A stretch of 64,000 nt of DNA from a virus: IMG/VR virus record IMGVR_UViG_3300038829_000263, positions 79,220-143,219 of that record. One strand, given 5' to 3'. The notes below the pieces were generated by a model. It ran no database searches and had not been told where the DNA came from. It worked only from the letters and a program-made list of their open reading frames with translations. Of the stretch, positions 10,964-27,809 are shown one piece after another; position 1 is the first letter of the stretch; each line of letters begins with the position of its first letter. Both the position numbers and the translations under genes were made by a program.

Positions 10964-11059
10964 CCCCCCTGCCGCCTGTCCGGCATACTGGTGAGGCGGT
11001 GCGCGGCGAGTGGATCCGCCTCCCTCGCCGCGCACCGCCAAGCCTCTGGGAGGGACCCG

Positions 11060-12028
11060 GTGACGACGGCGACGCTCTACCGCGATGCGGACTACGGGGC
11101 CCTGGCCATCTACCCTGGGGCCAGCGGCCTCGTCACGATCGACCACGGGTTCCTGGCGGAGGACTTCGAAGCGGCCCTGTCCGTCCTCGAGCGCCACGGC
11201 AGGGGCGAGACGCAGCCCGGCCCGGGCGCGTGCCACTGGCGCCTGGAGAGCGCGCATCCCCTGCAGGTCATGGCCTCCGTCGATGCCGCGCTGCGCCTGC
11301 GCGGGTACGCCGACGACGCCCTTGGCGAACGCGCGATCCTGCGCGTCACGTCCCAGGAGGCCGCCCGGCCTGATTTCCCGGCGCCGGGAAAGTGGCCGTC
11401 CGGGGCCGACCTCGACGCACACGTTCGGGCGCTCATCACCCCAGCCCTGGCTGAGGCCGCGGGCGCACCCGTGCCTCAAGTGGCCGTGGCCGTCATGCCC
11501 CGCCCGAACTCGCAGGAGTCCGCCCCCTGGGCCCGCGCCCGGGCCCTGCTACCGGCCGGCGATGCCAAGGTCGTCCAGGAGCGCCTCCGGGCCGCCCTGG
11601 TCGGTCCCGTGCGCGAGATCCTGCGCCGGGCCACGGTGACCGCCTGCTCGCCCACCCTGCCCCATGGCCGGCTCCTGGCGGAGATCGCCCTCGCCATCCC
11701 CCGGGCCCTCTTGAACGAGTGGGAGAGCGCCATCCTCCCCGCCTTCCGGCCGGCCACGCACGGGTGGCGCCAGGTCTGGCTCAAGCGCGGCGAGAAGGAC
11801 GTCCCGGAGTCCTTGCTCTCCCGCGCCCGCGAGGGCGGGGCGATCGTGGGCGAGGCCCGACAGGGCCCGCGCGCTCTGGGCCTGCGCATCCCCTCGGCCA
11901 TGCCCGGGGACCACCTGGCGGACACGGCCTTCTCCGAGCGGCTCTGCTGGCTGACCGAGGCCCTGGGGGTGGAGCTCGTCGGCATCGACCCCTACCAGGA
12001 CTGGACCCCCGCCGCTGCCCACGAGTAG
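11060..12028 (+). CDS. Hypothetical protein
   Basis: GGGAGGG RBS before GTG 11060; codon bias. Confidence 0.7.
   Translation: MTTATLYRDADYGALAIYPGASGLVTIDHGFLAEDFEAALSVLERHGRGETQPGPGACHWRLESAHPLQVMASVDAALRLRGYADDALGERAILRVTSQEAARPDFPAPGKWPSGADLDAHVRALITPALAEAAGAPVPQVAVAVMPRPNSQESAPWARARALLPAGDAKVVQERLRAALVGPVREILRRATVTACSPTLPHGRLLAEIALAIPRALLNEWESAILPAFRPATHGWRQVWLKRGEKDVPESLLSRAREGGAIVGEARQGPRALGLRIPSAMPGDHLADTAFSERLCWLTEALGVELVGIDPYQDWTPAAAHE
11374..11391. repeat. Perfect 18-bp palindrome TTTCCCGGCGCCGGGAAA (dispersed motif)
   Basis: Self-reverse-complementary; variants at 30002, 43568 and 61053, weak copy at 1585. Confidence 0.8.
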
Positions 12029-12037
12029 CATGGGCGC

Positions 12038-15000
12038 ATGCCCATGCAGCCGCAAAACGAGACCTCCCGCGGCAGCCTTGCCTCCGTGACCCCGGGGTTC
12101 CTCGGGGCGACGCAGCGTGGGCGGCTCTCGGAGTTCGGCTGCGCGGGGTGCGGCTTCGCCATGCCGCGCTACCCCGGACGCTACCCCGCGGCCTGCCCCA
12201 AGTGCGGCGGGACGGTCGAGCGCCGCCAGGTGGCCGAGGCCGAGAAGATCCCCGGCGGGAAGGCGGCCGGCATGAAGCCGTCAGACTTCGACCCCGGGGC
12301 GCTCCTCGCCGGCATCCGGGTCGAGATGGAGCACACGAGCGACGCGGCCCTGGCGATGGAGATCGCGATGGACCACCTGGCGGAGGACCCGGCCTACTAC
12401 GACAAGCTCGCCACGATCCACCCGCCCGAGGAGGAGCCGGCCGAAGGCGGCGCGGGCTCGGGGTTCGTCGGCGCCCCGGACTACCCCTCCTGGCAAGGCG
12501 AGGGCGCCCCGATTCCGCTCGCCTCGCGCGCGTGCCGCATCCAGGCCCTCATCGAGGCCGGTGCGCAGGGGCGGTACCCCTACAACGCGGACCCCGACCG
12601 CTGCTCCCGCCCGCGCCGGCTCACGGCCGCCCAGGTCGAGGAGCTGTGCCCTGGCGGTGCGGCCGGCCTGCGGATGTTCCTCGAGCAGGGGAACCCCGAG
12701 AGCCGCTACTTCCGCATCGAGTCCCCGGCCGCCCCGGTGCTCATCTGCGAGTTCCACGTCGGCGGCGACCTCGTGATCTATGCGACCGTCGACCCCGTGA
12801 CTTACCTGGGCTTCGACCCGCGCCAGGAGCTCGTCTCGGAGTCCTCGCGCTGGCCGGGCACGGTCGACGTGCACGACCCCGGCCACGACATCATCGCGCG
12901 TATAGCCGGCGACAAGTTCCAGCTCGAGGACGTGAACACCTGGAAGGTCCACGGCTCTTGGCCGCTGTCCGACCTGATGAAGGACGACCCGATCAGGAAG
13001 GGCATCCGCCTGGCCGGGATCTTCCTGGACGCCTTCGTCGTCGAGCAGATCCTCCAGGCCGCCGGCGGCCGCTACCGCGAGTGGGCCAACCGCATCGTGG
13101 GCGCCATCCACGCGGCCGATGATGCGGCGCTCCGCCGGGGCCTGCGCGGCATGCGCGAGGGCGTGGACGAGGAGGTCATCAGGGCGTCGAAGGGCCTCGG
13201 TCTCTCGCGCGACGACCTCCCGCAGATCGACTCGGACAAGATCGACGACTTCCTGGAGTGGCTGCGCGTCCAGGGCATCGGCGTCTACCCGACCGAGGCC
13301 ACGGCGCGCCTTCTCCTGCCGTCCCAGGGCGAGCTGGAGTCCGACAAGATCGCCGCGATGGCGAAGGAGCCCGAGAAGCTCACGAAGGGGAAGATCATCA
13401 CGTCGGCCGACGGCTATGTGCTCGATGGCCATCATCGCTGGGCGGCCTACGTCGAGGTCTACCCCGAAGGCAACATGCCCGTCTGGCAAGTCCAGCTCGA
13501 CATCGTCACCCTCATCAACCTGGCGAAGCTGTTCCCAGGGGCGAAGGTGCGCGACATCTCCGGCAAGCGCGTGGCCGAGGCCGCTGACTCCAAGATCGCG
13601 ACGCGCCTTTCCTCGCTGGCCGCGCGACCGATGTGCCAGTTCAAGGGGCCTACCTGCGTCGGGCGCGCCTGGTGGAAGATGAACACGCCGCGCCCGTGGG
13701 GCGAGTTCGCCTGCTCGTCGTGCCTGACCGTCCTGGAGAAGGAAGCGGGCCTGGCGGAGGCCGTGAACCACGACATCGTGACGCGCGTCGTGAGCGCGAT
13801 GCGCCAGGCCAACTTGCAGCCGCGCTTCGAGGGCGGCATCGCTCCGACGCCCGACGTCGGCTACGTGCGCGCCATGGCCCTGGGCAACGTGGCGCTCGAG
13901 CTCGTGTTCGCGGGCGCGCGCCTCGTCTCCGCTTCGATCGTCCCCCCGGACGCCCCTGAGGACGACAAGGCTCAGATCCGCGCCGCGGTGATGGGCGTCC
14001 TCCCGAGCATGGCCGACATCGACTTGACCGAGAGCGCCGAGATGCCCTCGGAGCGCGAGCTGTCGGACCTGGCGACCGGCGCGACGGCAGTCACCAAGAG
14101 CGGCTCCGCGATCGAGTTCCGCTTCCCGCACGGCCGCTACGTTGAGATGGCCCACGACGCGATCCATGCGAAGTGGCCGCGCCTGGGCCTCCAGTTCTCG
14201 CAGTCGAAGAACGGGAACCCGGTCCTGATCGTCTCTCCGCCCTACGTGCCTCCGGTGCGCCGCCCGGACGCCCCGTTCTCGCTCGAGTTCTACGACGTGA
14301 GCCACGAGGGCGACGAAGCCCCCATCCTCCGTGACATCGCGGCCGCCGGCGGCAAGGTCGTGGGGCGGCACCGCTCCGGCGAGGAACTGTCGGTCGACAT
14401 CTCCGCCCCGGATGGCGAGGACGCGTTCATGGCGAAGTTCAAGCGCACGCGCTCGGCCTCGCGCCTGAACGAGGCGCGCCTGGAGGAGACGCGCTGGTCG
14501 CGCGCGGACCTGAACCGCCGGTTCAAGGGGCAGTACCACAACAAGGGCTTCGAGCTGCTCTACGGCGATGACCAGGCCGATGCCGGCGGCGGGCGCAAGC
14601 AGCCGCGCTACGCTGTCATCTCGACCTTCAAGTGGGTCGAGGCCCCGGTGAAGGGCGACTCCATCATGGACTACATGGACGAGATCGAGGCCGAGGCCCG
14701 CGACGCGATGATGGGGATGCGCGTCGTGGACGTGGGCGACGACTGGGCCGTGGTCGACATCGACTGGCGTGGGCTGGAGGAGGGCAACATGCCGGACGAC
14801 TACACTCCCTCCCAGGCCCGCGCCGCGATCCGCGGGATCATGGCCGCGCAGGAGAAGGGCGTCATCCCTGTCACGACCCAGGCCGTCGCGGCTTTCGGGT
14901 TCGGCAACCCGCGCTACACGGATCTCGCGCGCCAGGTGCTCTCGCGCCTCCAGGACCAGGGCTACGTCAGCTCCGACCGGGACCAGGGCTGGCATCTCTA

Positions 15001-16750
15001 CCAGTCGGCGAAGTACTGGCTGGCGGAGGCCGGCGGGAAGATCGTCCCCGGGGAAGGTCCCCAGGCCGGTGGCGGCGCCTGCCGCGCGGTCGGCGGCTTC
15101 CGGTTCGAGCTGGGCAAGTCGAAGAAGCGGAAGCCGCGGAAGGACGTGCAGCGCGCGATCCAGAACCGGCTCAACGCGAAGCGCGGGCTCGCGTCGCGCA
15201 TCTCGGCCGCGAAGAAGTGGCACCAGAGCTCCCAGGGCCGGCGCTACCACCGCGACCTCGGCCGCTACCTCCGCCAGGAGTCGTACTGGCCCCTGTTCGA
15301 GCGCGAGACGGAGTTCACGAACCGCTACCAGGCCCTCGGCCTCGCGGAGCCCGACCCGGCCACGATGTGCCTGGGCGCGTGTGAGGGCACGGGCATGGTC
15401 CCGGTGAACTACGCCCCTGCGAAGGCGGGTGGGATCGGCCCCGATCCCGACCTGACCTACAAGGCGGCCTGGGAAGCGGCCGAGGCCGCTAGCCCGGCGG
15501 AGGACGGATGGCACTTCGTGAAGTGCCTGGGCTGCGGCGGCTCGGGGAAGGCGACGCGCCTGAACGAGAGCCATCTGCCCCCGCTGGTAGGGTTGGACCG
15601 GGCTCGCCTGGCCGTCGAGGTGGAGCGCCGCTCGGGTCTGGACCGCGGACCGGCCGACGAGCGGCGGGTCCTCGCGGCCATCGCCGCGGTAGAAGCCGGC
15701 GACCTGAACAACCCTGACGCCGCCCTCAAGCGCCTGGTCTACGAGCTCTGGTTCTCGCTCAAGGACAACCCACTGCCTGGACTGCGCGAGGACGTGGGCG
15801 AGCGCACGGTCGATGACCGCTTCGACGAGTTCCTGCGCAAGCTCATCACGATCGAGTCGACGGACGTGCTGCAGGACGTCAACTTCACCGACGACGGCGG
15901 CATCTACCTCTTCTTCGACCCCTCGCTCTGCGGGCCCGACCTGGACGAGATCCTGATGGCGCTCCGTCAGGCCCAGGGCAGCGAGGGCGTCGAGATCGTC
16001 GGCACTCCCGACGAAGAGGACAGCGACTGGTGGGTGATCTTCTCCCCGCCGCCGACCGACTCGGCCGCGTGCGTCCCTGGCCAGGAGACACTGGACCAGC
16101 AGGCGGCGGGGGACGAGGTCCAGCCGGTCGATGGCGCGCCCGCGCCCCTGGCGAGCATGGCCGTGATGAAGCAGAACTCGGTCGACCGCCTGGCCATGAG
16201 CGTCGACATCCCGGCCCTGATGCAGGGCATCGATGGCGCCGAGGCGCAGAACGAGGCGACCGAGCGGGTCTACTACCGCATCAAGGTCGACGGCAAGTAC
16301 GTGGGTTCGCCCACGAACACCCGCACGGCGAACCCGAACCTCGCGGCGACCTGGGGGACGGACGAGCGCGACCAGGCCGAGAAGCTGGCCAAGCTCATCC
16401 CCGGCGCCGTCGTCGAGCCCTATCTCTACAAGAGCATGCTCAGCGAGTGCGGCGCGCACGGCCCTGTCATCCCCGAGGCGCTCCAGCCCCGCGAGGACGG
16501 CGTCGTCGTGCTCCTGTGGTCGGCCGTCGAGAGCCGCGTGCCCAGGTTCAAGGGCATTGCCTCGGGCGGCGCCGACCTTCACGGTCTCCGTGAGGCCGCT
16601 GCGCAGGGGAAGGGCACCCTGTTCCTCGTGCGTGCTCTGGGGGCCAGGGCCGCACGTGATACGATTCGTACTGGCAAGGGCCTGCACGAGATCGCACCCA
16701 ACGTCCTGACGAACGAGGTCGGCCTGGCGCACGTCCTCGCCGCGGAGTGA
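12038..16750 (+). CDS. Giant mosaic head-region protein (1570 aa): Zn ribbons, DUF5661-like, ParB/Srx-like, winged-helix, basic prohead-core-like and DnaJ-type Zn segments
   Basis: CAGC..CPKCG; GIRVEMEH...IAMDHLAEDPAYYDKL; LPQID...PSQGE...YVLDGHHRWAA; LSRLQDQGYV; CLGACEGTG..CLGCGGSG. Confidence 0.85.
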   Translation: MPMQPQNETSRGSLASVTPGFLGATQRGRLSEFGCAGCGFAMPRYPGRYPAACPKCGGTVERRQVAEAEKIPGGKAAGMKPSDFDPGALLAGIRVEMEHTSDAALAMEIAMDHLAEDPAYYDKLATIHPPEEEPAEGGAGSGFVGAPDYPSWQGEGAPIPLASRACRIQALIEAGAQGRYPYNADPDRCSRPRRLTAAQVEELCPGGAAGLRMFLEQGNPESRYFRIESPAAPVLICEFHVGGDLVIYATVDPVTYLGFDPRQELVSESSRWPGTVDVHDPGHDIIARIAGDKFQLEDVNTWKVHGSWPLSDLMKDDPIRKGIRLAGIFLDAFVVEQILQAAGGRYREWANRIVGAIHAADDAALRRGLRGMREGVDEEVIRASKGLGLSRDDLPQIDSDKIDDFLEWLRVQGIGVYPTEATARLLLPSQGELESDKIAAMAKEPEKLTKGKIITSADGYVLDGHHRWAAYVEVYPEGNMPVWQVQLDIVTLINLAKLFPGAKVRDISGKRVAEAADSKIATRLSSLAARPMCQFKGPTCVGRAWWKMNTPRPWGEFACSSCLTVLEKEAGLAEAVNHDIVTRVVSAMRQANLQPRFEGGIAPTPDVGYVRAMALGNVALELVFAGARLVSASIVPPDAPEDDKAQIRAAVMGVLPSMADIDLTESAEMPSERELSDLATGATAVTKSGSAIEFRFPHGRYVEMAHDAIHAKWPRLGLQFSQSKNGNPVLIVSPPYVPPVRRPDAPFSLEFYDVSHEGDEAPILRDIAAAGGKVVGRHRSGEELSVDISAPDGEDAFMAKFKRTRSASRLNEARLEETRWSRADLNRRFKGQYHNKGFELLYGDDQADAGGGRKQPRYAVISTFKWVEAPVKGDSIMDYMDEIEAEARDAMMGMRVVDVGDDWAVVDIDWRGLEEGNMPDDYTPSQARAAIRGIMAAQEKGVIPVTTQAVAAFGFGNPRYTDLARQVLSRLQDQGYVSSDRDQGWHLYQSAKYWLAEAGGKIVPGEGPQAGGGACRAVGGFRFELGKSKKRKPRKDVQRAIQNRLNAKRGLASRISAAKKWHQSSQGRRYHRDLGRYLRQESYWPLFERETEFTNRYQALGLAEPDPATMCLGACEGTGMVPVNYAPAKAGGIGPDPDLTYKAAWEAAEAASPAEDGWHFVKCLGCGGSGKATRLNESHLPPLVGLDRARLAVEVERRSGLDRGPADERRVLAAIAAVEAGDLNNPDAALKRLVYELWFSLKDNPLPGLREDVGERTVDDRFDEFLRKLITIESTDVLQDVNFTDDGGIYLFFDPSLCGPDLDEILMALRQAQGSEGVEIVGTPDEEDSDWWVIFSPPPTDSAACVPGQETLDQQAAGDEVQPVDGAPAPLASMAVMKQNSVDRLAMSVDIPALMQGIDGAEAQNEATERVYYRIKVDGKYVGSPTNTRTANPNLAATWGTDERDQAEKLAKLIPGAVVEPYLYKSMLSECGAHGPVIPEALQPREDGVVVLLWSAVESRVPRFKGIASGGADLHGLREAAAQGKGTLFLVRALGARAARDTIRTGKGLHEIAPNVLTNEVGLAHVLAAE

Positions 16751-16755
16751 TACCC

Positions 16756-19700
16756 ATGCTCGAGTCGCTCAGCCTGGCCATCCGGATCTACCGCCACCTG
16801 GCCGAGAGCACGCAGGAGGTGGCGCCCGGCGACGTGTGGGAGTGGGCCGCGGTCCGCAAGGCCCTGCTCTCCGCCCCGCACGGCCCCGGGCTCATCAAGC
16901 ACCTGGAGACCCTGGGCGAGTCCGCGCGCGAGGGCTCTCTCGCCTGGCTGCGCTCGATGGCGCCGTTCGCCCCCATGGGCCGCGTCGTCCGCCTCCCCGG
17001 CGTGGCCGAGGCGCGGGCGTTCCTGACGAAGGTCCGGGCCGAGGGCATGCTGGCCGAGCCCATGGGCGAAACGTGCGTGCAGGTCCACGACGTGGACGAG
17101 GAGGAGATCCGCCGCGCCGTCCAGGCCGCGCAGGGCGTGCTCGTCGAGACCGCGGCCTCGGCCTACAAGGCGTTCGACCACGACCTGTTCCAGAACATGC
17201 TGGACGACGGCAACTCCGTCGAGCGCGTCGAGTCCGCCATCCTCCGCGCGATCGAGTCCCGCGGCGCGGGCACGCTCGACGAGTCGTTCGTGATCGTGGG
17301 CCAGTACGCCCCCGAGGAGAAGTTCATCGGCCGCCTGGAGCGGTTCGCCGACCTCCGCCCGCGCCAGGTGCTCGGCATGGACGTGGAGCTGGCCGAAGCG
17401 CTCTACGTGGCCGGCCGCCTCCCGGCGGCGGCGCGGCCGATCGTGGCGCGCGTGCTCCACCTGACGGAGGAGACGGAGAGCGCGCCCGTGGGCGACACGG
17501 CCGCCTCCCCGGCCCAGGCCGGCACCCCGCTCGACAAGGGCGGCGTCGCGAAGGACCAGCCCGACGTCTCGGCCGGCGCCCCGGCGCAGTCGCAGGACGG
17601 CGAGAAGAAGGAAGCCGAGCAGCCGACCGACATGCGGCCCGACGAGCCCTCGGACGAGATCACCCTCCCCGACGGGACCATCGTGCCCGAGGACGTGCTG
17701 CGCCAGGCCCTGGCCCGCATGCTCGTCGTCCTCTCGACCCAGCTCGAGCAGGGCGTCGGGACAAACGGCCAGCCGAACGGCAACGGCGAGGAGGAAGGCG
17801 AAGAGGGCGAGGAAGGGGACGCGGAGGCCGACGAAGGGGAAGACGAGGACGCCGGCGCGACGCCCGCGCCCGCCGCGCCCCCGGCCGAGAAGCCCGCGGC
17901 CCAGGCGGCCGCCCAGACCGAAGGGACGATCGGTCCCAGCTTCAAGACCGGGGACGAGGTGCGACTCCCGGACGGCCGGACGGGCCGTGTCATCACGTCC
18001 GTGTTCAACGACGTCATCGTCAGGCTCGCGGACGGCAGCGAGTGGCGTGGTCCCGGCAGCACCGTCCTCAAGCTGGCCCAGACCGAGGCCGTCGTGGCCG
18101 AGGGAACGCCGATGTCCGACATGCTCAACCGCGAGTTCCCGCCTGGCAGCGTCTGGGCGGACGGCGCGGGCGAGCGCGCCCGGATCACGGGGAACGGCTC
18201 GGACGGGCTGGTGTACTACGTCGAGTTCACGCGCCTCGACCGCCTGTTCATGGGATGGTCGCACGACTACCGCACGGCGGATCAGATGATCGCCGCGAAG
18301 AAGTCGGGCGAGATCCGCATGGTCCGCAGCGAGTCCGTCGTGAAGGTCACAGAGGGCCGCAAGCACCTGATGGCGGCCGTGGCCGACCCGGCCAAGTTCG
18401 AGGTCGGCTCGTTCAAGGTCGTGGCGATCGGCGAGGGCGTCCAGGCCCAGGTCGGGCGCCTGGCGGCGACGAAGCGAGAGCGCATCCAGTCGCTCGTGTT
18501 CGACAAGGCCAAGTTCACCGAGGCCACGGCCCAGGAGTGGATCACGCGCTACCGGGCGAAGACGGTCGCCCCGGCCCGGCGGCCGGAGCTGACCGAAGCC
18601 GCCAGCCCCAACCTGAATGACCCCCTGGCGCTCTCGCGCGGGATCTTCGCGAACGCGAAGGAGCACTACGGCGCCACGCGCTCCTACCTGGGCGGCAGTC
18701 GCGGCATGCACCAGCTCCAGATCTGGTTTCCCAACAACGAGAGCGCACGGCGCTTCGTCGCAGAGATGGGCGGCGAGTGGGGTCCCAACGTCCGCATCGA
18801 AGAGTCGCTGATGAAGGACGCCAGCGTGTTCGTCGAGTGGTACAGCCCGATGTTCGAGGGCCAGCGCCTGGACGAGGACTGGTTCACGAACATGCGCGAG
18901 AGCGCGAAGGCGTTCTACGAGACGGCGTCCAAGGACGCATCCAGCGCCGCTGAGCAGCTCGGAACGAAGCCCACGTCGGCGAAGTCGTGGCCTGACATGC
19001 TGGCGCGTGCCGAGCGCCTGGGTGACCACTGCTCCGTCTCGCTCCGCCAGGCGCTCGTGATGAACCGGGAGCTCGTGCAGGCGGCGAAGGGCGCCGATGC
19101 GCTGGCTGGGGTGGAGGAGCGCACGAGGCGGTCCGTGGCCGAGGCCGAGGAGCCGGGCGACGCCGAGGAGAAGGCCGTCGGTGCTGCGGCCTGGGAGGAC
19201 GCGCGCGCGCAGGTCAGCGCGATGAAGGCCGCCGTGTTCAAGCTGGTCACGGACGACCTCGTGAAGATCGAGGCCGTGTCGAAGGCCCTCGACGCGAAGA
19301 AGGCGATGCGCGCGGCCGTCAAGCTCCGCGAGACCTTCGAGGAGCTCCACGACGAGATGAAGAAGGCGCTCGGTTCCTTCGAGGACGCCCACGACATGTT
19401 CGTGGCCGAGACGGGCGCGGAGAAGCCGGCCGAGGAGGCCCCCGCGGCCGAAGCCCCCGCCCCGGCTCCTGCAGCACCGGCTCCCGCCGCCCCTGCAGCG
19501 GAAGTCCCTGCTCCCGCGGCCCCGGCCCCTGCGCCGGCCGCGGAGGAGTCGAGGACCGACCAGGCCGTCCGGCGCCTGACCGGGTCGAACGTCGCGCGCC
19601 GCGTCGCGGAAGGCGTGATGATGGGCGAGGTCGTGGACGCGATGCGGGCCGAGTGCTCGGACCTGGGCCTGTCCGTGCGGGAGCTGGCCGAGGTCCACGA

Positions 19701-19983
19701 GCGCATCTCCGGCGTCGAGGCCCTGGCGGCCCAGCGCGTGTACAAGCTCTCCCTGTCCGAGGCCGACCGCGAGCTCGTGTCCGCCGTGAGCCAGGCGCCC
19801 ACCGACGCCCCCGGGCGGTTCGCGCAGGCCACGGCCGAAGGCCGCGAGGCCAAGGTCTACGAGGCCGAGCTGGAGGAGGTCATCGGGGCCCTCCGGTGCC
19901 TGGGCGAGGTCGAGCATGGGCTCCTGGCGGCGGAGCTGTCGCGGGCGATGCGGGGGATGGCGCTGACCGCCGGGCGCGTGTAG
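16756..19983 (+). CDS. Giant mosaic head-region protein (~1075 aa) with SH3/KOW-like domains and acidic and Pro/Ala linkers
   Basis: GGAG RBS; FKTGDEVRLPDGRTGRV; EEEGEEGEEGD tract; PAPAAPAPA tract; coiled-coil segments. Confidence 0.85.
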   Translation: MLESLSLAIRIYRHLAESTQEVAPGDVWEWAAVRKALLSAPHGPGLIKHLETLGESAREGSLAWLRSMAPFAPMGRVVRLPGVAEARAFLTKVRAEGMLAEPMGETCVQVHDVDEEEIRRAVQAAQGVLVETAASAYKAFDHDLFQNMLDDGNSVERVESAILRAIESRGAGTLDESFVIVGQYAPEEKFIGRLERFADLRPRQVLGMDVELAEALYVAGRLPAAARPIVARVLHLTEETESAPVGDTAASPAQAGTPLDKGGVAKDQPDVSAGAPAQSQDGEKKEAEQPTDMRPDEPSDEITLPDGTIVPEDVLRQALARMLVVLSTQLEQGVGTNGQPNGNGEEEGEEGEEGDAEADEGEDEDAGATPAPAAPPAEKPAAQAAAQTEGTIGPSFKTGDEVRLPDGRTGRVITSVFNDVIVRLADGSEWRGPGSTVLKLAQTEAVVAEGTPMSDMLNREFPPGSVWADGAGERARITGNGSDGLVYYVEFTRLDRLFMGWSHDYRTADQMIAAKKSGEIRMVRSESVVKVTEGRKHLMAAVADPAKFEVGSFKVVAIGEGVQAQVGRLAATKRERIQSLVFDKAKFTEATAQEWITRYRAKTVAPARRPELTEAASPNLNDPLALSRGIFANAKEHYGATRSYLGGSRGMHQLQIWFPNNESARRFVAEMGGEWGPNVRIEESLMKDASVFVEWYSPMFEGQRLDEDWFTNMRESAKAFYETASKDASSAAEQLGTKPTSAKSWPDMLARAERLGDHCSVSLRQALVMNRELVQAAKGADALAGVEERTRRSVAEAEEPGDAEEKAVGAAAWEDARAQVSAMKAAVFKLVTDDLVKIEAVSKALDAKKAMRAAVKLRETFEELHDEMKKALGSFEDAHDMFVAETGAEKPAEEAPAAEAPAPAPAAPAPAAPAAEVPAPAAPAPAPAAEESRTDQAVRRLTGSNVARRVAEGVMMGEVVDAMRAECSDLGLSVRELAEVHERISGVEALAAQRVYKLSLSEADRELVSAVSQAPTDAPGRFAQATAEGREAKVYEAELEEVIGALRCLGEVEHGLLAAELSRAMRGMALTAGRV

Positions 19984-20030: not shown

Positions 20031-20363
20031 ATGCAGAGCACGAAGTCCGCGTACTACACAGCGCCCGCCATCGCGGCTCGCATCGTGGAGTTCAAGAACA
20101 ACGGCTCGCTCCCGCCCTACGTGGTCGTGGAGAACCTGGGCACAACCGCGTCCGCCTCGGTGATCTACCAGGAGAGCGACGACGGCTCCACCTGGACGGA
20201 CATCGCCTCCACGACGACGACGGTGAACCCTGGCACGTCGAACGGCCAGAAGATCACGTCGACCAAGGCTCACCTGGCGCTCAAGGCCGGCGGGAACGTC
20301 CCGCTACTCGTGAGCGTCCATCGCACGGTGAACGGGTCTCCGGCCAGCCTCGGGGCGGCCTAG
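20031..20363 (+). CDS. Small virion structural protein
   Basis: YQESDDGSTWTDI; Thr/Ser beta-rich; lies in the head cluster. Confidence 0.75.
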   Translation: MQSTKSAYYTAPAIAARIVEFKNNGSLPPYVVVENLGTTASASVIYQESDDGSTWTDIASTTTTVNPGTSNGQKITSTKAHLALKAGGNVPLLVSVHRTVNGSPASLGAA

Positions 20364-20384: not shown

Positions 20385-21422
20385 ATGGCCGAGATCGGCT
20401 ACAGCTTCAACGGGATCGGCCTCGCCGAGGCGCAGGACAGGGTCAACGAGCACCGGACGGGCGTCCCGAGCAAGGGCCTGATGGCGCTCCTGCAGCGCAC
20501 CATCGGCATCCGCCGGACGTCCAAGGTCGGCGTCGCGAACACCGGCCGCGCGGCGGCCCACGTGCGCCTGCGGCACCAGGGCCTCGAGCGGACCATCGCG
20601 GCCGAGGCCCTGGCGGCCCTGAACGTGCCGGCGACGAACCGCTTCGTCGGGCGGCTCCAGTTCGGCGCGATCACGCCGGGCTCGATCGTCGTCACCGAGG
20701 CCGGCGCCCTGGCCGACATCGTGGACGACGGCCTCGGGAAGCTCTACGACATCGGGTTCGTGGGCGTCGCGGCCAACTTCCGCGGGACGATCAACTACGT
20801 CACGGGCGCCCTGGACGTGACCTTCGGCGCGGCCTTCACGGCGCCCGTCACGATCGCCTACCGGCACTCCGACTACGTGGACTTCGCCTCCGCGAACCAG
20901 ATCGTGTCCGGCCCCGCGGGCGCGCTCCCCTACACCCTCCAGCTCCCCTTCGGGCGCGTGGTGCCGGGCAGCGTGTCGCTCACCGACGGCGTCTCCACCT
21001 GGGTGGACGACGGCAAGGGCAACATGATCCAGGCGAACCTGGCGCGCGGCACGATCGACTACGCCGCCGGCATCGTCGTCCTGAACACGGGCCCGGCCGT
21101 CGCGGCCCCGCTGACCGCCGCGTCGGTGATGCAGTACAACCCGTTCGCCGCGCTCGTGGCCGCGGGCGGTGGCCAGAAGCTGCTCGACATCTTCTCCCAG
21201 ATCCCCGAGCTCACGAACGGGCCCTGGGCGGCGGGCGTGGACAGCGAGACCCGGCTCGGCCTCGTGGGCGAGTCGAACGTCCTGGCCCTGGCCACGGACC
21301 TCGTGGTCCAGTGGTCGCACTACGGCGAGGAGCCGTACCGGGTGGACGAGGTGTTCTCGGGCTTCCCGCCCGGCGGCTTCTCGAACGACCCCAACGTGGA
21401 CCAGGCGGTCGCCCACCTGTAA
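20385..21422 (+). CDS. Virion structural protein with two PG[ST]..DDGxG..I[DN]Y modules
   Basis: AGGAGG RBS; ITPGS..DDGLG..GTINYVTG and VVPGS..DDGKG..GTIDYAAG. Confidence 0.8.
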   Translation: MAEIGYSFNGIGLAEAQDRVNEHRTGVPSKGLMALLQRTIGIRRTSKVGVANTGRAAAHVRLRHQGLERTIAAEALAALNVPATNRFVGRLQFGAITPGSIVVTEAGALADIVDDGLGKLYDIGFVGVAANFRGTINYVTGALDVTFGAAFTAPVTIAYRHSDYVDFASANQIVSGPAGALPYTLQLPFGRVVPGSVSLTDGVSTWVDDGKGNMIQANLARGTIDYAAGIVVLNTGPAVAAPLTAASVMQYNPFAALVAAGGGQKLLDIFSQIPELTNGPWAAGVDSETRLGLVGESNVLALATDLVVQWSHYGEEPYRVDEVFSGFPPGGFSNDPNVDQAVAHL

Positions 21423-21485: not shown

Positions 21486-22379
21486 ATGGCGATCGTCAGG
21501 ACAACGCGCGACGAGGTACTGCGCCTCGGGCCTGGGGCCTCCGGGGAGGAGTCCCGGCTCTCGGGGGCGTCCCTCGTGTTCGCCGACATCCCGGCGCTCG
21601 GCAACGTGCACGCCTACGTGCATCGCCCGACGGAGCTCAAGGGTGCGGCGGGGCTGTTCGGCGTGGAGCTATCCGACGGCGGCGCGGCCGCCGGCGCCAC
21701 GCAGCCCTACCGCTTCGAGCTGGCGCAGCCCCCGGCGGACTTCACCGTCGGGGGCGCGACCTTCGCCCGGCCCAGGACGCGCCAGCGGGTGCTCGTGGCC
21801 GACGGCCGCGGGCACTTCTGGGTCAACCAGGAGGTCCCGGCCTTCGCGGCCTTCGCTCCTGTCCAGGACGGGGCGCTCGTCCAGTGCGGCCGCAAGGAGC
21901 ACATGCTCCCGATGCCGGGAAACAACGTCCCGGCCGGCGCGACCTTCCTCCTCCGCTTCCGCTGGGTGGCCACGGCGGTCGTGGCCGAGGTCCAGGCGTC
22001 CCCGCCCATGACGCCTGGCGTGCCCGACGGGATACGGCGCTCCTTCCGCGGCCAGCTCGGGAACCTGACGCCCAACTCGCGCATCGCGCCTGGGTCGGTC
22101 GTGTTCACGGCCACGGTCACCGCCCTGGCCCTCACGATCCGGGACGACGGCCTGGGGCGCCTCGTCGGCATCCGACGCGACGCGAACGGCAACGTCACGG
22201 CCACGGCCGATGGCCTCATCAACTACCTCACCGGGCAGTGGTCGCTCGACTTCGGCCCCCCGCCCCCGGCGACGGCGATCGTCCCGGACGCCGCGACCAA
22301 CATCTCCGCCTCCTACGAGCACTCCTGCCCCTACCTCCCGCTGGACGTGCATCTGGAGTGGGACGTTCTGCTCCAGTAA
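21486..22379 (+). CDS. Virion structural protein with one PGS..DDG..INY module
   Basis: GGGGAG RBS; IAPGSVV..RDDGLG..GLINYLTG. Confidence 0.8.
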   Translation: MAIVRTTRDEVLRLGPGASGEESRLSGASLVFADIPALGNVHAYVHRPTELKGAAGLFGVELSDGGAAAGATQPYRFELAQPPADFTVGGATFARPRTRQRVLVADGRGHFWVNQEVPAFAAFAPVQDGALVQCGRKEHMLPMPGNNVPAGATFLLRFRWVATAVVAEVQASPPMTPGVPDGIRRSFRGQLGNLTPNSRIAPGSVVFTATVTALALTIRDDGLGRLVGIRRDANGNVTATADGLINYLTGQWSLDFGPPPPATAIVPDAATNISASYEHSCPYLPLDVHLEWDVLLQ

Positions 22380-22389
22380 GGGCTTACTG

Positions 22390-22836
22390 ATGGCTGTCCG
22401 TGTCCCCCTGCCGCGCTACGCCGACCTCCCCAAGGTCGTGCTGTTCCATCGCGCGCACCCGACGGACCCGACGGTCATCCTCCAGCTACCGAACGAGGAC
22501 CGGACGGACTCGGAGACGTACCGCCTGGACCTCGAGCGCGAGGGCGACCGCGGGTGGATCGAGGGGCTTCCCGGCGGCCGGGACGTGCTCTACAAGCTGA
22601 CGATGGAGATGCACATCGCCTACGAGCCGGCGACCGGCGGCATGCGCGCCATCGCGGACCTGGACGAGCCCACCATGCGCCAGCAGGAGATCGCGCTCGC
22701 GCGCCTGGAGGCGTCCCGCACGGCCAACGGCGCCCAGCGCTCGACGCTCCGCTCCCGGCGCCACGTTCCCCCACCGTCGACGTTCCGCCTGGGCCTCATG
22801 CTCGGGCAGGAGCCGCTCAGGAGGGCACCCCTGTGA
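22390..22836 (+). CDS. Hypothetical protein
   Basis: ATG 22390; overlaps the protease start. Confidence 0.7.
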   Translation: MAVRVPLPRYADLPKVVLFHRAHPTDPTVILQLPNEDRTDSETYRLDLEREGDRGWIEGLPGGRDVLYKLTMEMHIAYEPATGGMRAIADLDEPTMRQQEIALARLEASRTANGAQRSTLRSRRHVPPPSTFRLGLMLGQEPLRRAPL

Positions 22837-25800
22837 GCGTGGAACTCCTGACCCCGTCCGTGGCGCGGCTCCTGCTCGCGGAGCAGCGCAACGCCCCTCA
22901 GCGGATCGAGCTCCGCGAGACCTTCTCCGTCGACCCGCGCGCCCTGACCGAGGGCGCGAAGGGGAACATCACGGAGCTGGCCGACGGGCGCTTCCGCGTC
23001 CGGTGCAAGGGCCAGCACTGCGGCCTCGTCAACCGGAACAACCGGCGCTACGAGACGAAGAAGACGTGGGGCAGGCACACGCTCCCGGAGAGCGTGTTCA
23101 TGCGCCGGGTCAAGTCCCGCCGCGTCGTGGGCCAGCTCGAGCACCCCCCGGAGGGACGCGGGGGCATGGGCCTCGGTGCGATCGTCGTCACGGAGGTCGA
23201 AGCCCCGAACGCCCAGGGCGAGGTCTGGATCACGTTCGAGACGATGTCGACGCCCGACGGGCGGATCGCCGAGTCGTACATCCGCGACGGCGTCGGCTTC
23301 GGCGTCTCCTCGCGCGGACACGGGTCGGTCGTCCGCGGCGTGGATGGCGTGGACGACGTGCAGGAGGACTACGAGCCGGGCGCCTGGGACTGCGTGCTCG
23401 ACGAGTCGACCCCTGGCTCCGAGGTCGTGTCGCAGAAGCTCCGGGAGAGCCGCAAGGCGCTCCTCGAGTCGGTGGGCGGCGATGAGGCGAAGGCCCGCGA
23501 GCTGTGCCGGATCGAGACCGAGTCCGCCCTGGCGCGCATGTTCCCCACGGCGCCCGCGGCCGCCCAGGAGAAGAACGTGACCGAGGCCGAGGCTGGCGAC
23601 CCGTCGACCGGCGGCGTGGACGACGAGATGCCCCCGACCGGCGCGAACGAGTTCCTCCTGGCGCTGCCCGACGGCGCAGGCCACTACCGCGCCTACGACA
23701 ACTCCATCAACCAGTGGGACGTCTGGCTGGAGATCCACAACCTCGCGCCGAAGCGGATCGCGAAGGCCCTGCAGACCCTCGCGGCCGCGAAGGCGGCGGC
23801 CGAGGCCCACGCCCAGTACGTGGTCGGCGCCGCCATGACCGAGGCGGCCAAGCAGGACCCGAACGCCCGGCGTGCGCTCCGTGCGGCCCTTCGCGACGCC
23901 ATGCGCGCCCAGGCCGAGGCCGCGACGAAGAAGCCCGTCACCGAGGACGCGGAGGAAGTCGCTGCGGTCCCCTTCACGGGCACGTGCGTCTGGCTGCGCG
24001 ACTTCGACTCGGCGTCCGAGGCCGAGAAGGCGATGAAGGCCCTGGAGGCCGCCGGCTTCCACGTCGAGCAGGACGACTGCTGCGTGTCCGTCCAGACCGG
24101 CTACACGGACGCCCTCCAGGCCATCGAGCACATCAAGCGCGTGCTCGGGATGAAGGACATCGCCATCGACGAGGTGCGTGTCGTACGCCATGGCAAGACC
24201 GTCTGGGCTGACCGGCTCAGCGAGGCCCTGCCGGGCGATCCCACGCCCCAGGTCGGGGACATCGCCTACGACGGCGGCGCGGAGTACGTCATCACGAGGA
24301 TCGACGCGGCGAAGGGCCTGGCCTACGCCACGCACCCGCGCTACGGCGACCGGACGTTCTACATGCCGGCCACGCAGCGCGGGCAGAACTACGGGTTCTG
24401 GCCGCGGCACGACAAGATCCGCGGGAAGCAGGCATGGGGCCATCAGGACCGCCCGCGCGTCTGGGGTCCGCTGGGCTTCGACGAGGCGATCAACACGCTC
24501 CCGTCCGTGGCCGACCAGCCCCAGACGTCCGTCCCCCAAGCCGAGGACGACGAGCTCGATCACTTCCCCTTCGACCTGGACGACGAGCCCTGCGGGCTGG
24601 AGATCCTGGGCGACGACCCCTACGAGGAGAACGGCATGGGCCCCACCGCACCCGCGTCCTTCGGCGCCTCCGACTTCGGCGAGATGGGCATCTACGACAA
24701 CGGCGACATGGACGGTCTCCCCATGCCCCCGATGGAGATGGCAGAGCCGGAGGAGCCCATGTCCCAGGCGACCTACGCCGAGATGAAGGCCAAGATGGAG
24801 ATGCACCGCGCCGGCTACATGGAGATGCGCGGCCAGATGGAGCGCATGCGGCGCGGCATGTCCGAGGCCGAGGGCGGCTCTGGCTACCCGGCGGCCCTTC
24901 CTCTCGACGATCCCGAGGACCTGGACCACGACCTCGACTGGGTGAACGCGCCCAAGATCGACGTGGGCGTGGCCGAGGCCGAGGGGAACGGCAACGGGAA
25001 GAACGGGAAGAACGGGAAGAAGGACGACGAGGAGGAGAAGGACAAGGACAAGAAGAAGGACGAGGCCAAGCGCCAGGCCGTGTACTACTCCCGTGTCCCT
25101 CGTCCCATGGCCGAGGGCAAGCGCCCTGCTGGCCACGCGCGCCTGTACTTCACGGAGAAGGACGAGCTCCTGGGCCTGGCCGAGTTCAACGAGCAGGGCA
25201 AGTGCGTGGCGAAGTCCGGGATGCGCGAGGGCAAGCTCGTGCCCATCGGCAAGGGCACGCCCCCGACCCCCGCGAAGGTCCACGAGTCCCACAAGGGGTT
25301 CGTGAAGGGCTGCGGCCTGTGCGAGGAAGTCACGCGCCGTGAGCAAGCGGCGCTCGTGGCCCGCCGCAAGGCGGCCGTGGCGGAGGCGGCCAGGCTCGTC
25401 GGCATCGCGCCGGCCGCTGCCCCGGCGAAGCCCTCGCTCACCGAGATGACGAAGGACGCCCAGGACTTCATCGGGCGGGAGATCGCCCACCTGGTGAAGG
25501 ACAAGGGCTACGAGCAGGACCGTGCCGTGGCGGCGGCCTACAACATCGCCCGTGAGAAGGGCTACTCCGTGCCCACGGCGCCCAAGGACGAGGCCGCGGT
25601 CAAGGCCATCGCCGGCAAGACGCTCATGGAGCACTCGACGCCCGCCGGCGAGGTCGTGGCGCTGCGCAAGCGCACCTCCTACCTCCAGGAGGAGGTCACG
25701 CGTCTCGAGCGCGAGAAGGCGCAGATGACGGACCTCGTGAACACGATGTCGTCGGTCCAGCGGGCCGCGCTCACGGAGGCCGAGATCAAGCGCGTGGTCC

Positions 25801-26321
25801 AACTCCACCCGGAGCTCGGGCGCATCAAGGAGCGCCTGGACAAGGCCAAGAGCCCGGCCGAGGTCGTGGCGGAGGCCAACTTCGCGCTCGGCCTCCTGGG
25901 CAAGCCGCTCATCCCGGTGACCGAGGCGGCGCCCAAGCCGGCCCCTGCCCCCAAGCCCGCGGCCGCGCCGAAGCCCGCCCCCCAGAAGCCCGCCCCCCAG
26001 AAGCCCGCCGCTCCCCCGGCGCCCATGACCGAGGCGTCGACGAAGCCGGCGGCCCCCGCGAAGCCGCCCGCCCAGACCCCCGCCCAGGCGCCTGCCCAGG
26101 CCCCCGCACCGACGAACGGCGCGACTCCGGCTGGTGCACGTGCTAAGGTGGGGACGACCGCCGTGGAGAGCCTGGCCGTGCCGGACGCTCCCGGAGGTCC
26201 GCTGACCGAAGCGGAGGAGGCGGCCTTGCTCGGTGGCGGAGAACTCACGGAGGCGTCCCTGGCGACGGGGACCATGAGTCGCGTTGCGGCCTACAGGCGT
26301 AGGGCGCGGGGCGAGAACTAA
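22833..26321 (+). CDS. T4 gp21-type prohead protease fused to a ~950-aa scaffold/cargo extension
   Basis: AGGAGG RBS; VNRNNRRY, GQLEHP (His), TPDGRI..GVSSRGHGSV (Ser), WDCVLDESTPGS (Asp); C-terminal coiled coil immediately before the capsid gene. Confidence 0.9.
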   Translation: MSVELLTPSVARLLLAEQRNAPQRIELRETFSVDPRALTEGAKGNITELADGRFRVRCKGQHCGLVNRNNRRYETKKTWGRHTLPESVFMRRVKSRRVVGQLEHPPEGRGGMGLGAIVVTEVEAPNAQGEVWITFETMSTPDGRIAESYIRDGVGFGVSSRGHGSVVRGVDGVDDVQEDYEPGAWDCVLDESTPGSEVVSQKLRESRKALLESVGGDEAKARELCRIETESALARMFPTAPAAAQEKNVTEAEAGDPSTGGVDDEMPPTGANEFLLALPDGAGHYRAYDNSINQWDVWLEIHNLAPKRIAKALQTLAAAKAAAEAHAQYVVGAAMTEAAKQDPNARRALRAALRDAMRAQAEAATKKPVTEDAEEVAAVPFTGTCVWLRDFDSASEAEKAMKALEAAGFHVEQDDCCVSVQTGYTDALQAIEHIKRVLGMKDIAIDEVRVVRHGKTVWADRLSEALPGDPTPQVGDIAYDGGAEYVITRIDAAKGLAYATHPRYGDRTFYMPATQRGQNYGFWPRHDKIRGKQAWGHQDRPRVWGPLGFDEAINTLPSVADQPQTSVPQAEDDELDHFPFDLDDEPCGLEILGDDPYEENGMGPTAPASFGASDFGEMGIYDNGDMDGLPMPPMEMAEPEEPMSQATYAEMKAKMEMHRAGYMEMRGQMERMRRGMSEAEGGSGYPAALPLDDPEDLDHDLDWVNAPKIDVGVAEAEGNGNGKNGKNGKKDDEEEKDKDKKKDEAKRQAVYYSRVPRPMAEGKRPAGHARLYFTEKDELLGLAEFNEQGKCVAKSGMREGKLVPIGKGTPPTPAKVHESHKGFVKGCGLCEEVTRREQAALVARRKAAVAEAARLVGIAPAAAPAKPSLTEMTKDAQDFIGREIAHLVKDKGYEQDRAVAAAYNIAREKGYSVPTAPKDEAAVKAIAGKTLMEHSTPAGEVVALRKRTSYLQEEVTRLEREKAQMTDLVNTMSSVQRAALTEAEIKRVVQLHPELGRIKERLDKAKSPAEVVAEANFALGLLGKPLIPVTEAAPKPAPAPKPAAAPKPAPQKPAPQKPAAPPAPMTEASTKPAAPAKPPAQTPAQAPAQAPAPTNGATPAGARAKVGTTAVESLAVPDAPGGPLTEAEEAALLGGGELTEASLATGTMSRVAAYRRRARGEN

Positions 26322-26360: not shown

Positions 26361-27809
26361 GTGATCGCAACTCGTGAGATGGCGCGGCGGTCTCGGATGC
26401 TGACGGACCGCCTGGTCGACAAGCACAGGGCCCTGGTGAAGAAGTACGAGAGCTTCTCGCTCCCGGAACTCGACATCAAGGGACTCAACCCGATGGAGAT
26501 CCTGGAGACGGGTCCCAACCGGGAGAAGGACCCGCTCAAGGCGTACAAGTGCGCCCGCCTGATGGAGAACTTCGTCCAGGCGGCGATGCGCCAGGGCACG
26601 ATCGACGAGACCTCGCGCGCCTCGCTGCCCGCCTGGATCAAGTCGGGCCTCGCGCTGATCGCGGCCGCCCAGGCCGACGACCAGACCGACATGGTCATCT
26701 CCGACCAGCCGCTCTCCTCGCGCAACGGCCGCATCCACTACCTGGACGTGGTCAGCGAGCGCGCCAAGGGCCAGATCGGTGACCGGACGAAGCTGTTCGA
26801 CGCCCTGGCCGGGTTCCGCGGGACGCAGGACTTCACGTCCGAGAACATCGAGAACGAGCGCCTGTCCGGCCCCGGCGGCGCGACGTTCAACGTGTCCCTG
26901 GGCTACTCGCCCGTCATCCCGGGCACGCTGCTGCTGACCGACGGCACGCAGCAGGTCCGCGACGACCGCAACGGCAACCTGGTCGGCGACGTGGGCGCGC
27001 CCGGCGGCGGGTTCACGAACACGATCGACTACCTGACGGGCGCCGTATCGGTGCGCCTGGCGGTGGCGGCCGCGGGCGATGTCCGCGTCAGCTACCAGTA
27101 CAACATCGAGGCGTCGCTCGTCCTGCCCGAGTACGGCATCCTGCTCCGCGCCGAGGCAGTCCAGGCCCGGCCGCGCGCGCTCGGCGCGTCGTGGTCGCAC
27201 CAGGCCGTCATGGACTTCATGAACGACTACGGCATCGACGCCGAGCCGACCATCATCGAGGCCGGCGCGCGCCTGATCGCCCAGGAGAAGTTCAAGCACG
27301 TCGTCAACACCCTGCGCCAGAACGCGACGGGCGGCTCGATCCTGTTCGACAACACGGCCCCGACGGGCGTGTCGTACCGGGACCACCTCAAGACGTTCTC
27401 GCTCTACCTGAGCCGCCTCCAGGACCTCATCTGGGAGGCGACCCAGCTCGTCCGCCCGAACCGGATGGTGATCCACCCCTCGATCCTCTTCATCGTCGCG
27501 TTCCAGGACGGGTTCGAGGGCGTCAAGTTCGCCAACGACGGCATCGCCGGCCCGCGCTACGTCGGCCGCCTCGCGCGGCACGACATCGACGTGATCGCCG
27601 ACCCGACGTTCCCGCGCGACGAGTTCGTGCTCACCCACCGCGGCCAGGAGTTCGTCTCCACGGCGGCGGTCATGGGGACCTACGTGCCGCTCTACAAGAG
27701 CCCGGTGCACGTGCGCGGGTTCCGCAAGGACTTCGCGCTGCTGACCGAGTACGTGCTCAAGATCATCAACTCGAACCAGATCGGCACGGGCAAGGTCATC
27801 AACCTTTGA
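26361..27809 (+). CDS. Major capsid protein, T4 gp23 type, with inserted beta module
   Basis: QPLSSRNGRIHYLD and VQARPRALGASWSHQAVMDFMNDYGIDAE match gp23 blocks; follows the protease/scaffold gene. Confidence 0.92.
   Translation: MIATREMARRSRMLTDRLVDKHRALVKKYESFSLPELDIKGLNPMEILETGPNREKDPLKAYKCARLMENFVQAAMRQGTIDETSRASLPAWIKSGLALIAAAQADDQTDMVISDQPLSSRNGRIHYLDVVSERAKGQIGDRTKLFDALAGFRGTQDFTSENIENERLSGPGGATFNVSLGYSPVIPGTLLLTDGTQQVRDDRNGNLVGDVGAPGGGFTNTIDYLTGAVSVRLAVAAAGDVRVSYQYNIEASLVLPEYGILLRAEAVQARPRALGASWSHQAVMDFMNDYGIDAEPTIIEAGARLIAQEKFKHVVNTLRQNATGGSILFDNTAPTGVSYRDHLKTFSLYLSRLQDLIWEATQLVRPNRMVIHPSILFIVAFQDGFEGVKFANDGIAGPRYVGRLARHDIDVIADPTFPRDEFVLTHRGQEFVSTAAVMGTYVPLYKSPVHVRGFRKDFALLTEYVLKIINSNQIGTGKVINL

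Follow-up and report, generated by a model that had tools for sequence, protein, structure and literature searches.

We analysed a 64,000-nucleotide stretch of viral DNA (the window), which makes up the right-hand end of an IMG/VR record of 143,219 bp from a groundwater metagenome (IMGVR_UViG_3300038829_000263, positions 79,220 to 143,219), and concentrated on a head-module gene (16756-19983, plus strand) that encodes a mosaic protein of 1075 residues. With moderate confidence, we read this protein as a precursor that is incorporated into the prohead and cut there by the head protease, at sites that are invariant in its family as well as at some lineage-specific ones. The reading draws on an excess of a Glu-specific motif, on candidate sites that are kept among divergent relatives, on the layout and exchange of the protein's domains, and on the genes that surround it. 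Residue numbers are counted from the GTG at 16747, the first possible start of the open reading frame (ORF; P0001, 1078 aa), and subtracting three gives the true residue.

Motif excess and conserved candidate sites

The motif [LIVM]-x-E-[SAGT] was observed 21 times in the mosaic protein compared to 8.4-8.8 expected occurrences (z 4.1-4.6, about 2.5-fold); expected counts were obtained from shuffled sequences, so that composition was controlled. The sister giant, a 1570-residue protein encoded directly upstream, contained the motif 14 times with 7.2 expected, and the other 113 proteins of the phage, when pooled, contained it 141 times with 125 expected (1.12-fold). Controls that placed Asp, Gln, Lys or Arg at P1 were flat in the mosaic protein, as were the reversed motif and the phiKZ-type motif [SAG]xE (31 observed, 34.9 expected). 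A phiKZ-type cutting rule was rejected on the basis of this last count. In 28 homologues of approximately 25-40% identity, whose variable middles are largely unrelated to each other, the motif occurred 536 times compared to 188 expected (2.85-fold, z 26.6). This is the strongest of the tests, as it does not depend on the sequence from which the initial annotation was made, although relatedness among the homologues means that conserved sites do not count independently. In the same homologues, the controls with Asp, Gln or the reversed motif gave 1.20-1.25-fold.

All twelve xxE strings that an initial annotation of this DNA had proposed as block boundaries are present, with the P1 Glu at residues 20, 88, 179, 241, 452, 536, 617, 686, 718, 799, 888 and 955. 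Four candidate sites, E20, E179, E217 and E799, are nearly invariant even though the family shares only about 30% identity. E20 (H-L-A-E/S, where the slash marks the candidate bond) is at least 90% conserved and falls within [LIVM]xE in 26 of the 28 homologues, followed by G, S or T at P1'. E179 (T-L-D-E/S) retains the motif in all 28 and is one of just nine invariant columns of the N-terminal domain, which we call the N handle; it is located in the sole low-confidence loop of that handle (residues 171-190), where the predicted local distance difference test (pLDDT) is 58-64 compared to about 95 around it. E217 (E-L-A-E/A) retains the motif in 25 of 28 homologues. E799 (S-V-A-E/A) retains it in 21 of 25, closes a helix just before the C-terminal domain (the C handle), and is followed by a family-wide QLD-[VT]-GQ. 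The motif at E241 (H-L-T-E/E), at the edge of a disordered region, was found in 7 of 20. A helix ends and coil follows at sites 20, 241, 452, 673, 704, 799, 888 and 955.

Structural units and exchange of cassettes

Judging from the sequence, the ATG at 16756 is almost certainly the real start codon. A GGAG lies 8 nt upstream of it, the database copy of the protein (P0003, 1075 aa) begins at its Met, and all homologues align starting from that residue. The GC content at third codon positions (GC3) is 0.95 in a genome of 70% GC, and the frame is therefore coding. The stop codon of the 1570-aa gene (16748-16750) lies 5 nt ahead of the ATG, in agreement with the direct abutment of the two genes described in the initial annotation. 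Pfam and PHROGs gave zero matches for either the whole protein or eight sub-segments, no match was found by tblastn against 50,697 phage records, and no paralogue was found within the phage itself. Locus searches with P0001 alone, with the family alignments A1 (too divergent) and A4, and in GTDB genomes returned nothing, and a word-indexed protein search returned one relative only. PDB sequence searches, whether with the single sequence or with a family profile, matched solely low-complexity Pro/Ala linkers.

The AlphaFold 2 (AF2) model divides the protein into at least six structural units (Table 1), none of which is a recognised effector. Residues 1-242, including a leader helix that is a candidate targeting peptide or pro-peptide with a protease site, form a single confident fold (pLDDT 89, predicted template-modelling score (pTM) 0.83) that spans nine motif occurrences. 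Structure matches to this N handle were generic, being either ferredoxin-like (Z of 7.7 or less) or small BFVD proteins with E-values no better than 5e-3. The disordered linker that follows includes the short motifs GG-[VI]-AKDQPD and LPDGT..P....R and then an amphipathic helix (residues 315-334), all of which are conserved in the family consensus; the helix is the only part of the linker whose pLDDT is not below 50. The acidic and Pro/Ala linkers noted earlier do exist and are disordered in the AF2 model.

Two SH3-like blocks had been proposed, and these fared differently. The first was matched by Foldseek to Tudor/SH3/KOW folds (probability 1.0, TM(target) 0.5-0.6) and was modelled with good confidence. 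The second, corresponding to residues 453-536, was not confirmed; in addition to its very low pLDDT it had no relative in 1.84 billion representatives except the overlap of P0004, and no Pfam or PHROG match. The helical hairpin of the C handle gave generic matches in the VIA search (ESCRT-III, ROP; Z about 10) and is conserved in 25 homologues. The second part of the C handle, which carries R-V-A-E/G (E955) at a helix end, is likewise conserved in 25 homologues, which include stand-alone proteins and fragments. When the full model was used as the query, the SH3/Tudor-like barrel was the sole return from Foldseek against PDB and BFVD, and a wide VIA search was swamped by generic helical hairpins. 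The ESM Atlas gave no usable match for residues 1-245 or 800-1078.

Table 1. Features of the mosaic protein and of its head module, with positions in the window. Residues are numbered from the GTG at 16747; MCP, major capsid protein.
Feature	Position	Strand	Basis
Mosaic head-module gene	16756..19983	+	GC3, GGAG, start of database copy, homologue alignment
N-terminal 17-residue leader helix (aa ~4-20), ends H-L-A-E/S	16756..16806	+	AF2, alignment
N-handle core (aa 21-179), helical bundle plus ferredoxin-like beta-alpha-beta (76-137)	16807..17283	+	AF2 pLDDT ~95
N handle, second part (aa 180-242), sites E217 and E241	17284..17472	+	pLDDT 81-90, packs with aa 1-175
Disordered linker (aa 243-396), conserved short motifs, then acidic, then Pro/Ala stretch	17473..17934	+	pLDDT <50
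SH3/Tudor/KOW-like barrel (aa ~400-445), ends V-V-A-E/G (E452)	17935..18102	+	pLDDT 80-84, Foldseek
Orphan block (aa 453-536), ends K-V-T-E/G (E536)	18103..18354	+	pLDDT ~30
Mobile head-assembly-associated module (aa 537-617)	18355..18597	+	~25 unrelated clusters share aa 541-612
Orphan, mostly helical blocks (aa 618-799); E673, E686, E704, E710, E718, E791, E799	18598..19143	+	pLDDT 35-60
C handle, part 1 (aa 800-888), long antiparallel helical hairpin, ends F-V-A-E/T (E888)	19144..19410	+	pLDDT 80-93
Pro/Ala-rich disordered linker (aa 889-935)	19411..19551	+	pLDDT <50
C handle, part 2 (aa 936-1078), compact alpha/beta domain	19552..19980	+	pLDDT ~90
Sister giant gene, 1570 aa, ParB-like cassette at aa ~398-499	12038..16750	+	phrog_2859, DUF5661
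Prohead protease fusion, 1255-aa ORF, S77/S80 domain at aa ~134-300	22554..26321	+	Pfam, PHROG
gp23-like MCP	26361..27809	+	Pfam Gp23 1.3e-15, match from aa 101

Residues 537-617, which the initial annotation had singled out as a compact block, proved to be an independent module of 81 residues that recurs in other protein clusters and is flanked exactly by KVTE/G (E536) and ELTE/A (E617). Its fusion partners elsewhere are the C-terminus of portals (PF06381), S78 prohead proteases, Mu-like protease I and PHROG head maturation proteases, and such partners point to a location within the head during assembly. The module is in neither Pfam nor PHROGs and represents an unnamed domain that is widespread among head-assembly proteins. 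In a set of metagenomic proteins (P0040-P0065) it spans 70-80 residues and stands after S78 proteases or before Mu-like protease I; some proteins contain it twice.

A full HMMER scan of the 1.84 billion representatives yielded about 35 relatives of 850-1826 aa. Their common layout consists of an N handle of approximately 390-420 aa, a middle of approximately 80-980 aa and a C handle of approximately 300 aa, with an extra 240-280 aa behind the C handle in four representatives. No family member has a Pfam or PHROG name as a whole, and a Zeta_toxin/AAA_33 match was obtained in 2 of 34 members. Phage_Mu_F, portal and peptidase Pfam families were found neither in P0001 nor in the 34 members (E up to 1e-3), and anchoring through a MuF or portal domain was rejected as no such domain is present in them.

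Cassettes move within this layout. A ParB-like domain with a DGHHR motif lies behind the C handle in four relatives (P0021, P0024, P0025/L006 and L002) and in mid-protein in another (P0008/L010); in the phage studied here it resides in the sister giant and not in the mosaic gene. The same cassette thus occupies three different positions over two carrier genes, which indicates that the two giant genes swap cassettes and act as equivalent carriers. The initial annotation had called the mosaic protein a second protein with the same architecture as the 1570-aa product. Cassette exchange between the two genes supports this description, but the N-terminal quarter is one fold rather than a string of mini-domains. 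The further reading of the initial annotation, a prohead-core or cargo polyprotein, is supported in part. It is possible, and we propose it only tentatively, that the two adjacent giants are carriers of a plug-and-play capsid-loading system, in which the handles dock, the cassettes swap, and the protease releases lineage-specific small proteins that travel with the DNA. Nearly any small domain could then be inserted between or behind the handles, the head protease would work in the manner of a viral polyprotein protease, and the phage would have a polyprotein strategy for its head cargo.

The head module and alternative readings

The mosaic gene is followed by three small genes (20031-20363, 20385-21422 and 21486-22379), a fusion protein with an S77 protease domain, and a gp23-like MCP, so that the protease and capsid genes lie 2.6-6.4 kb downstream of it. 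The order of giant gene 1, mosaic gene, a gene of about 110 aa, an MCP paralogue, a gene of about 295-297 aa, protease fusion and MCP is kept in at least seven related contigs (among them L002, L003/L004, L006, L010, L012 and L013), the MCPs of which are 61-65% identical to that of the phage.

The protease ORF matched Peptidase_S77 (PF03420, the T4 gp21 family) at E 3e-7 with 30.5 bits (Pfam cut-off, 27 bits), and it also matched S80 and phrog_207 'head maturation protease' (9e-16). T4 gp21 was not reached in a phmmer search of PDB with the protease domain. LEHP (His197) and SSRG (Ser252/253) are invariant across four protease orthologues and contain the putative catalytic His and Ser. Directly behind the protease domain, L-[RK]-E/[SN] (K-L-R-E/S at E298; approximately 23436-23450, plus strand) is conserved in the four orthologues, making E298 a candidate autocleavage site between the protease and its long tail. 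Self-trimming is known for gp21, gp175 and gp245 (PMC10052503; PMC9026906). The tail has the densest motif load of the genome (22 compared to 6.2 expected in the whole fusion, z 6.5-6.9). One protease orthologue (L002:10323-14849) is interrupted just behind LEHPGDGK by an intein-like insertion of about 150 aa, which starts with Cys, ends with His-Asn followed by Ser, and is absent from the proteases of the window, L003 and L010.

Three [LIVM]xE sites (E49, E69 and E83) fall in the N-terminal 83 residues of the MCP (26361-26609, plus strand), and orthologues with 64-65% identity keep all three. The last of these, I-D-E/T (E83), is just ahead of the Gp23 domain and is a likely propeptide cleavage point. 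The same cutting rule appears to be present at the places expected from T4 biology, namely the propeptide region of the MCP and the stretch directly behind the protease domain.

Two neighbouring genes have features of their own. The 345-aa product of 20385-21422 (plus strand) is conserved in every related locus, at 46-51% identity, and has a segment in common with the MCP, of which it is a paralogue; its G-L-A-E/A at residue 15 recalls the short propeptide of T4 gp24, the vertex protein. Another 345-aa protein, encoded by 10991-12028 (plus strand) immediately ahead of the first giant, is rich in [LIVM]xE (11 compared to 4.6, z 3.3). Orthologues of this protein measure 662-857 aa (L010:980-2968; L013:4621-7194), and the one in L010 has a segment in common with the N-terminal end of the 1570-aa giant. 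The gene may belong to the set as a third mosaic gene.

Three core proteins of T4, gp22, gp67 and gp68, are broken up into multiple fragments that exit the head (PMC9026906). The mosaic protein could be an accessory core or scaffold protein of this kind, which builds or sizes the prohead, is cut, and is expelled before DNA packaging, with no role as cargo or after injection. Several conserved sites inside a folded handle are the T4 pattern of removed core proteins, a long helical hairpin and disordered acidic linkers are common in scaffolds, and the studied copy has no enzymatic cassette. However, the position that a scaffold usually takes, as a fusion to the protease immediately ahead of the MCP, is held by the tail of the protease fusion, to which a scaffold role is most simply assigned. 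Relatives at the MCP level, such as Maribacter phage Colly, have the order portal, 246-aa gene, 435-aa 'scaffold and protease', capsid; they combine this compact protease-scaffold gene with an absence of giants, and the giants are therefore an addition specific to the clade of the studied phage. The nuclease and kinase cassettes in the variable middle of relatives would also be unexpected in a pure scaffold. We consider this explanation decidedly unlikely.

For a prohead-incorporated precursor, the following course can be proposed. The protein would be produced late, with translational coupling to the upstream giant gene, and would enter the prohead core through the N handle (leader plus residues 21-242), the motifs at residues 260-335, the C handle (800-1078), or a combination of these. 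The phage's gp21-type serine protease would cut after Glu in [LIVM]-x-E followed by a small residue, first at the family-invariant E20, E179, E217 and E799 and probably also at the lineage-specific E452, E536, E617, E686, E888 and E955, which flank cassettes. The N handle would be dismantled, much like T4 core proteins, and the small cassettes and C-terminal domains would be freed inside the capsid. Here these would be the SH3-like barrel, the 81-residue portal- and protease-associated module and the orphan blocks; in relatives, ParB-like nuclease and zeta-like kinase domains would be among them. The freed pieces may exit with the DNA.

Several observations weigh against this course of events. 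The phage is uncultured and known solely from a groundwater metagenome, and no RNA run was found among the sequencing runs listed. In the AF2 model the leader helix packs into the confident fold instead of hanging free, and E217 is within a predicted helix. Neither handle resembles any known capsid-targeting or scaffold domain in PDB, Foldseek and BFVD searches, and no recognisable effector domain was detected in the mosaic protein by Pfam or PHROGs, whether as a whole or in sub-segments. In a BLAST comparison of the family, 17.3% of homology-block ends fell within 5 aa of a site, compared to 16.2% for random positions. Finally, the tape-measure protein (41649-43640, plus strand) showed a motif excess of its own (13 compared to 6.0, z 3.2, about 2.2-fold) with flat controls. 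This protein is located outside the head and is no prohead component, so Ala/Glu-rich helical proteins can reach about twofold without head-protease cutting, and enrichment alone is no proof of such cutting. The tape-measure excess may reflect a structural bias of Ala/Glu-rich helices, or the tape-measure protein may be processed too.

Some of these observations would be expected of a polyvalent-type internal or ejection protein, like P1 DarB/DdrB, that is packaged but remains essentially intact, with at most the 17-residue peptide trimmed and the internal motifs mostly buried or unused. Residues 1-242 are one unit over nine motif occurrences, the ends of homology blocks do not track the sites, and the ParB-like and zeta-like cassettes of relatives are typical of polyvalent proteins (PMC5512222). 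Moreover, the T4 motif is short: gp21 cuts after L/I-x-E, and many occurrences in T4 proteins are uncut (PMC9026906). On the other hand, unused sites are hard to reconcile with an enrichment that is family-wide and specific to Glu while the Asp and Gln controls remain flat, with an invariant E179 in a flexible loop, and with the position of E799 at the entry to the C handle. We therefore regard an intact protein as unlikely. The same data bear on the initial annotation, in which every xxE was a block boundary. The motif excess is real and the mobile module is flanked exactly by E536 and E617, but the idea is too simple as a general rule: a single continuous fold over the motifs had been named as a counter-indication, and residues 1-242 are indeed one fold (other parts are separate units); homology ends are no nearer to sites than random positions, and GVAE/A (88) and NMRE/S (718) lie inside predicted helices and are not conserved.

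The tape-measure result also raises the question of whether the mosaic protein is a virion component at all. Its motif excess could stem from an Ala/Glu/Leu-rich helical composition combined with helix capping, and its gene could merely be situated in the late region; consistent with this, about half of the sites are in confidently folded parts. Composition is controlled by the shuffles, however, and neither the other P1 residues nor the reversed motif nor the pooled remainder of the proteome shows a comparable excess. The invariance of sites at 30% identity, the fixed position in the head module, and a cassette that is common to portals and prohead proteases likewise speak against a non-virion protein, which we find very improbable.

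Comparison with known systems

T4 showed that foreign proteins can be brought into a capsid, and from there into a cell, by a ten-residue tag combined with a protease site. If the mosaic protein is a cleaved precursor, this T4 principle has been turned into long modular precursors with exchangeable cassettes, which would explain how mid-sized phages diversify the sets of proteins that they inject. Two new capsid-docking domains would likewise be defined, along with a natural scaffold that packages several cargo proteins from one gene. The sites listed here provide a predicted cleavage-site set for an unannotated family of about 30 clusters; should they prove uncut, the family-wide Glu-specific motif excess needs another explanation. 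We found no paper describing head polyproteins jointed by protease sites. The processing principle itself is textbook T4, and what would be new is its incorporation into mosaic precursors, the two undescribed handles, and the movement of cassettes between two carriers.

Compared to T4 IPI-III, Alt, gp22, gp67 and gp68, the mosaic system has the same S77 protease family, hydrophobic-x-Glu rule and head-module location, and likewise a short N-terminal peptide ending in the motif together with several internal sites, as in core proteins. Retained T4 proteins lose N-terminal peptides of 7-65 residues (PMC9026906), and the 10-residue capsid-targeting sequence (CTS) of IPIII is enough to load foreign proteins, with Asp at P1 blocking processing (PMC9026906; PMC3012670). 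T4 uses many small separate genes, whereas here predicted chains of 1075 and 1570 aa combine handles with exchangeable cassettes. No sequence or fold similarity of the mosaic protein to any T4 protein, including the internal proteins, Alt, gp22, gp67 and gp68, was detected. The hairpin at residues 804-889 and the multiple sites would be compatible with a gp22-like scaffold, but the protease-adjacent place of such a protein is held by the fusion tail.

In giant phages, 9-19 head proteins are processed by gp21-related enzymes (PMC10052503). The inner-body and ejection proteins of phiKZ, 201phi2-1 and SPN3US are also cut after Glu by a gp21-related protease, and in phiKZ-type heads a large mass of internal protein loses its propeptides, in some cases through cuts at several places in one protein (PMC10052503, PMC5694885). 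These proteases use S/A/G-x-Glu, however, and their substrates are encoded by separate paralogous genes (PF12699 and others), to which the mosaic protein had no Pfam match; moreover, the studied phage has just about 143 kb.

Polyvalent proteins consist of many conflict domains in a row, among them DdrB-type ParB domains and zeta-like kinases. Their genes adjoin virion genes, and it has been proposed that the products undergo processing and delivery along with the DNA (Iyer et al. 2017, PMC5512222). The mosaic family similarly appears to string unrelated small domains together beside virion genes, with a DdrB-type ParB-like domain and a zeta-like kinase in relatives. For polyvalent proteins an MPTase peptidase of their own has been proposed, often with a MuF or portal anchor, whereas the mosaic family, in which neither a peptidase nor MuF is detectable, has the recognition motif of a separate prohead protease and its own undescribed N and C handles. 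The family combines themes of T4 processing, giant-phage processing and polyvalent proteins, and it is this combination that leads us to favour a precursor cut within the prohead.

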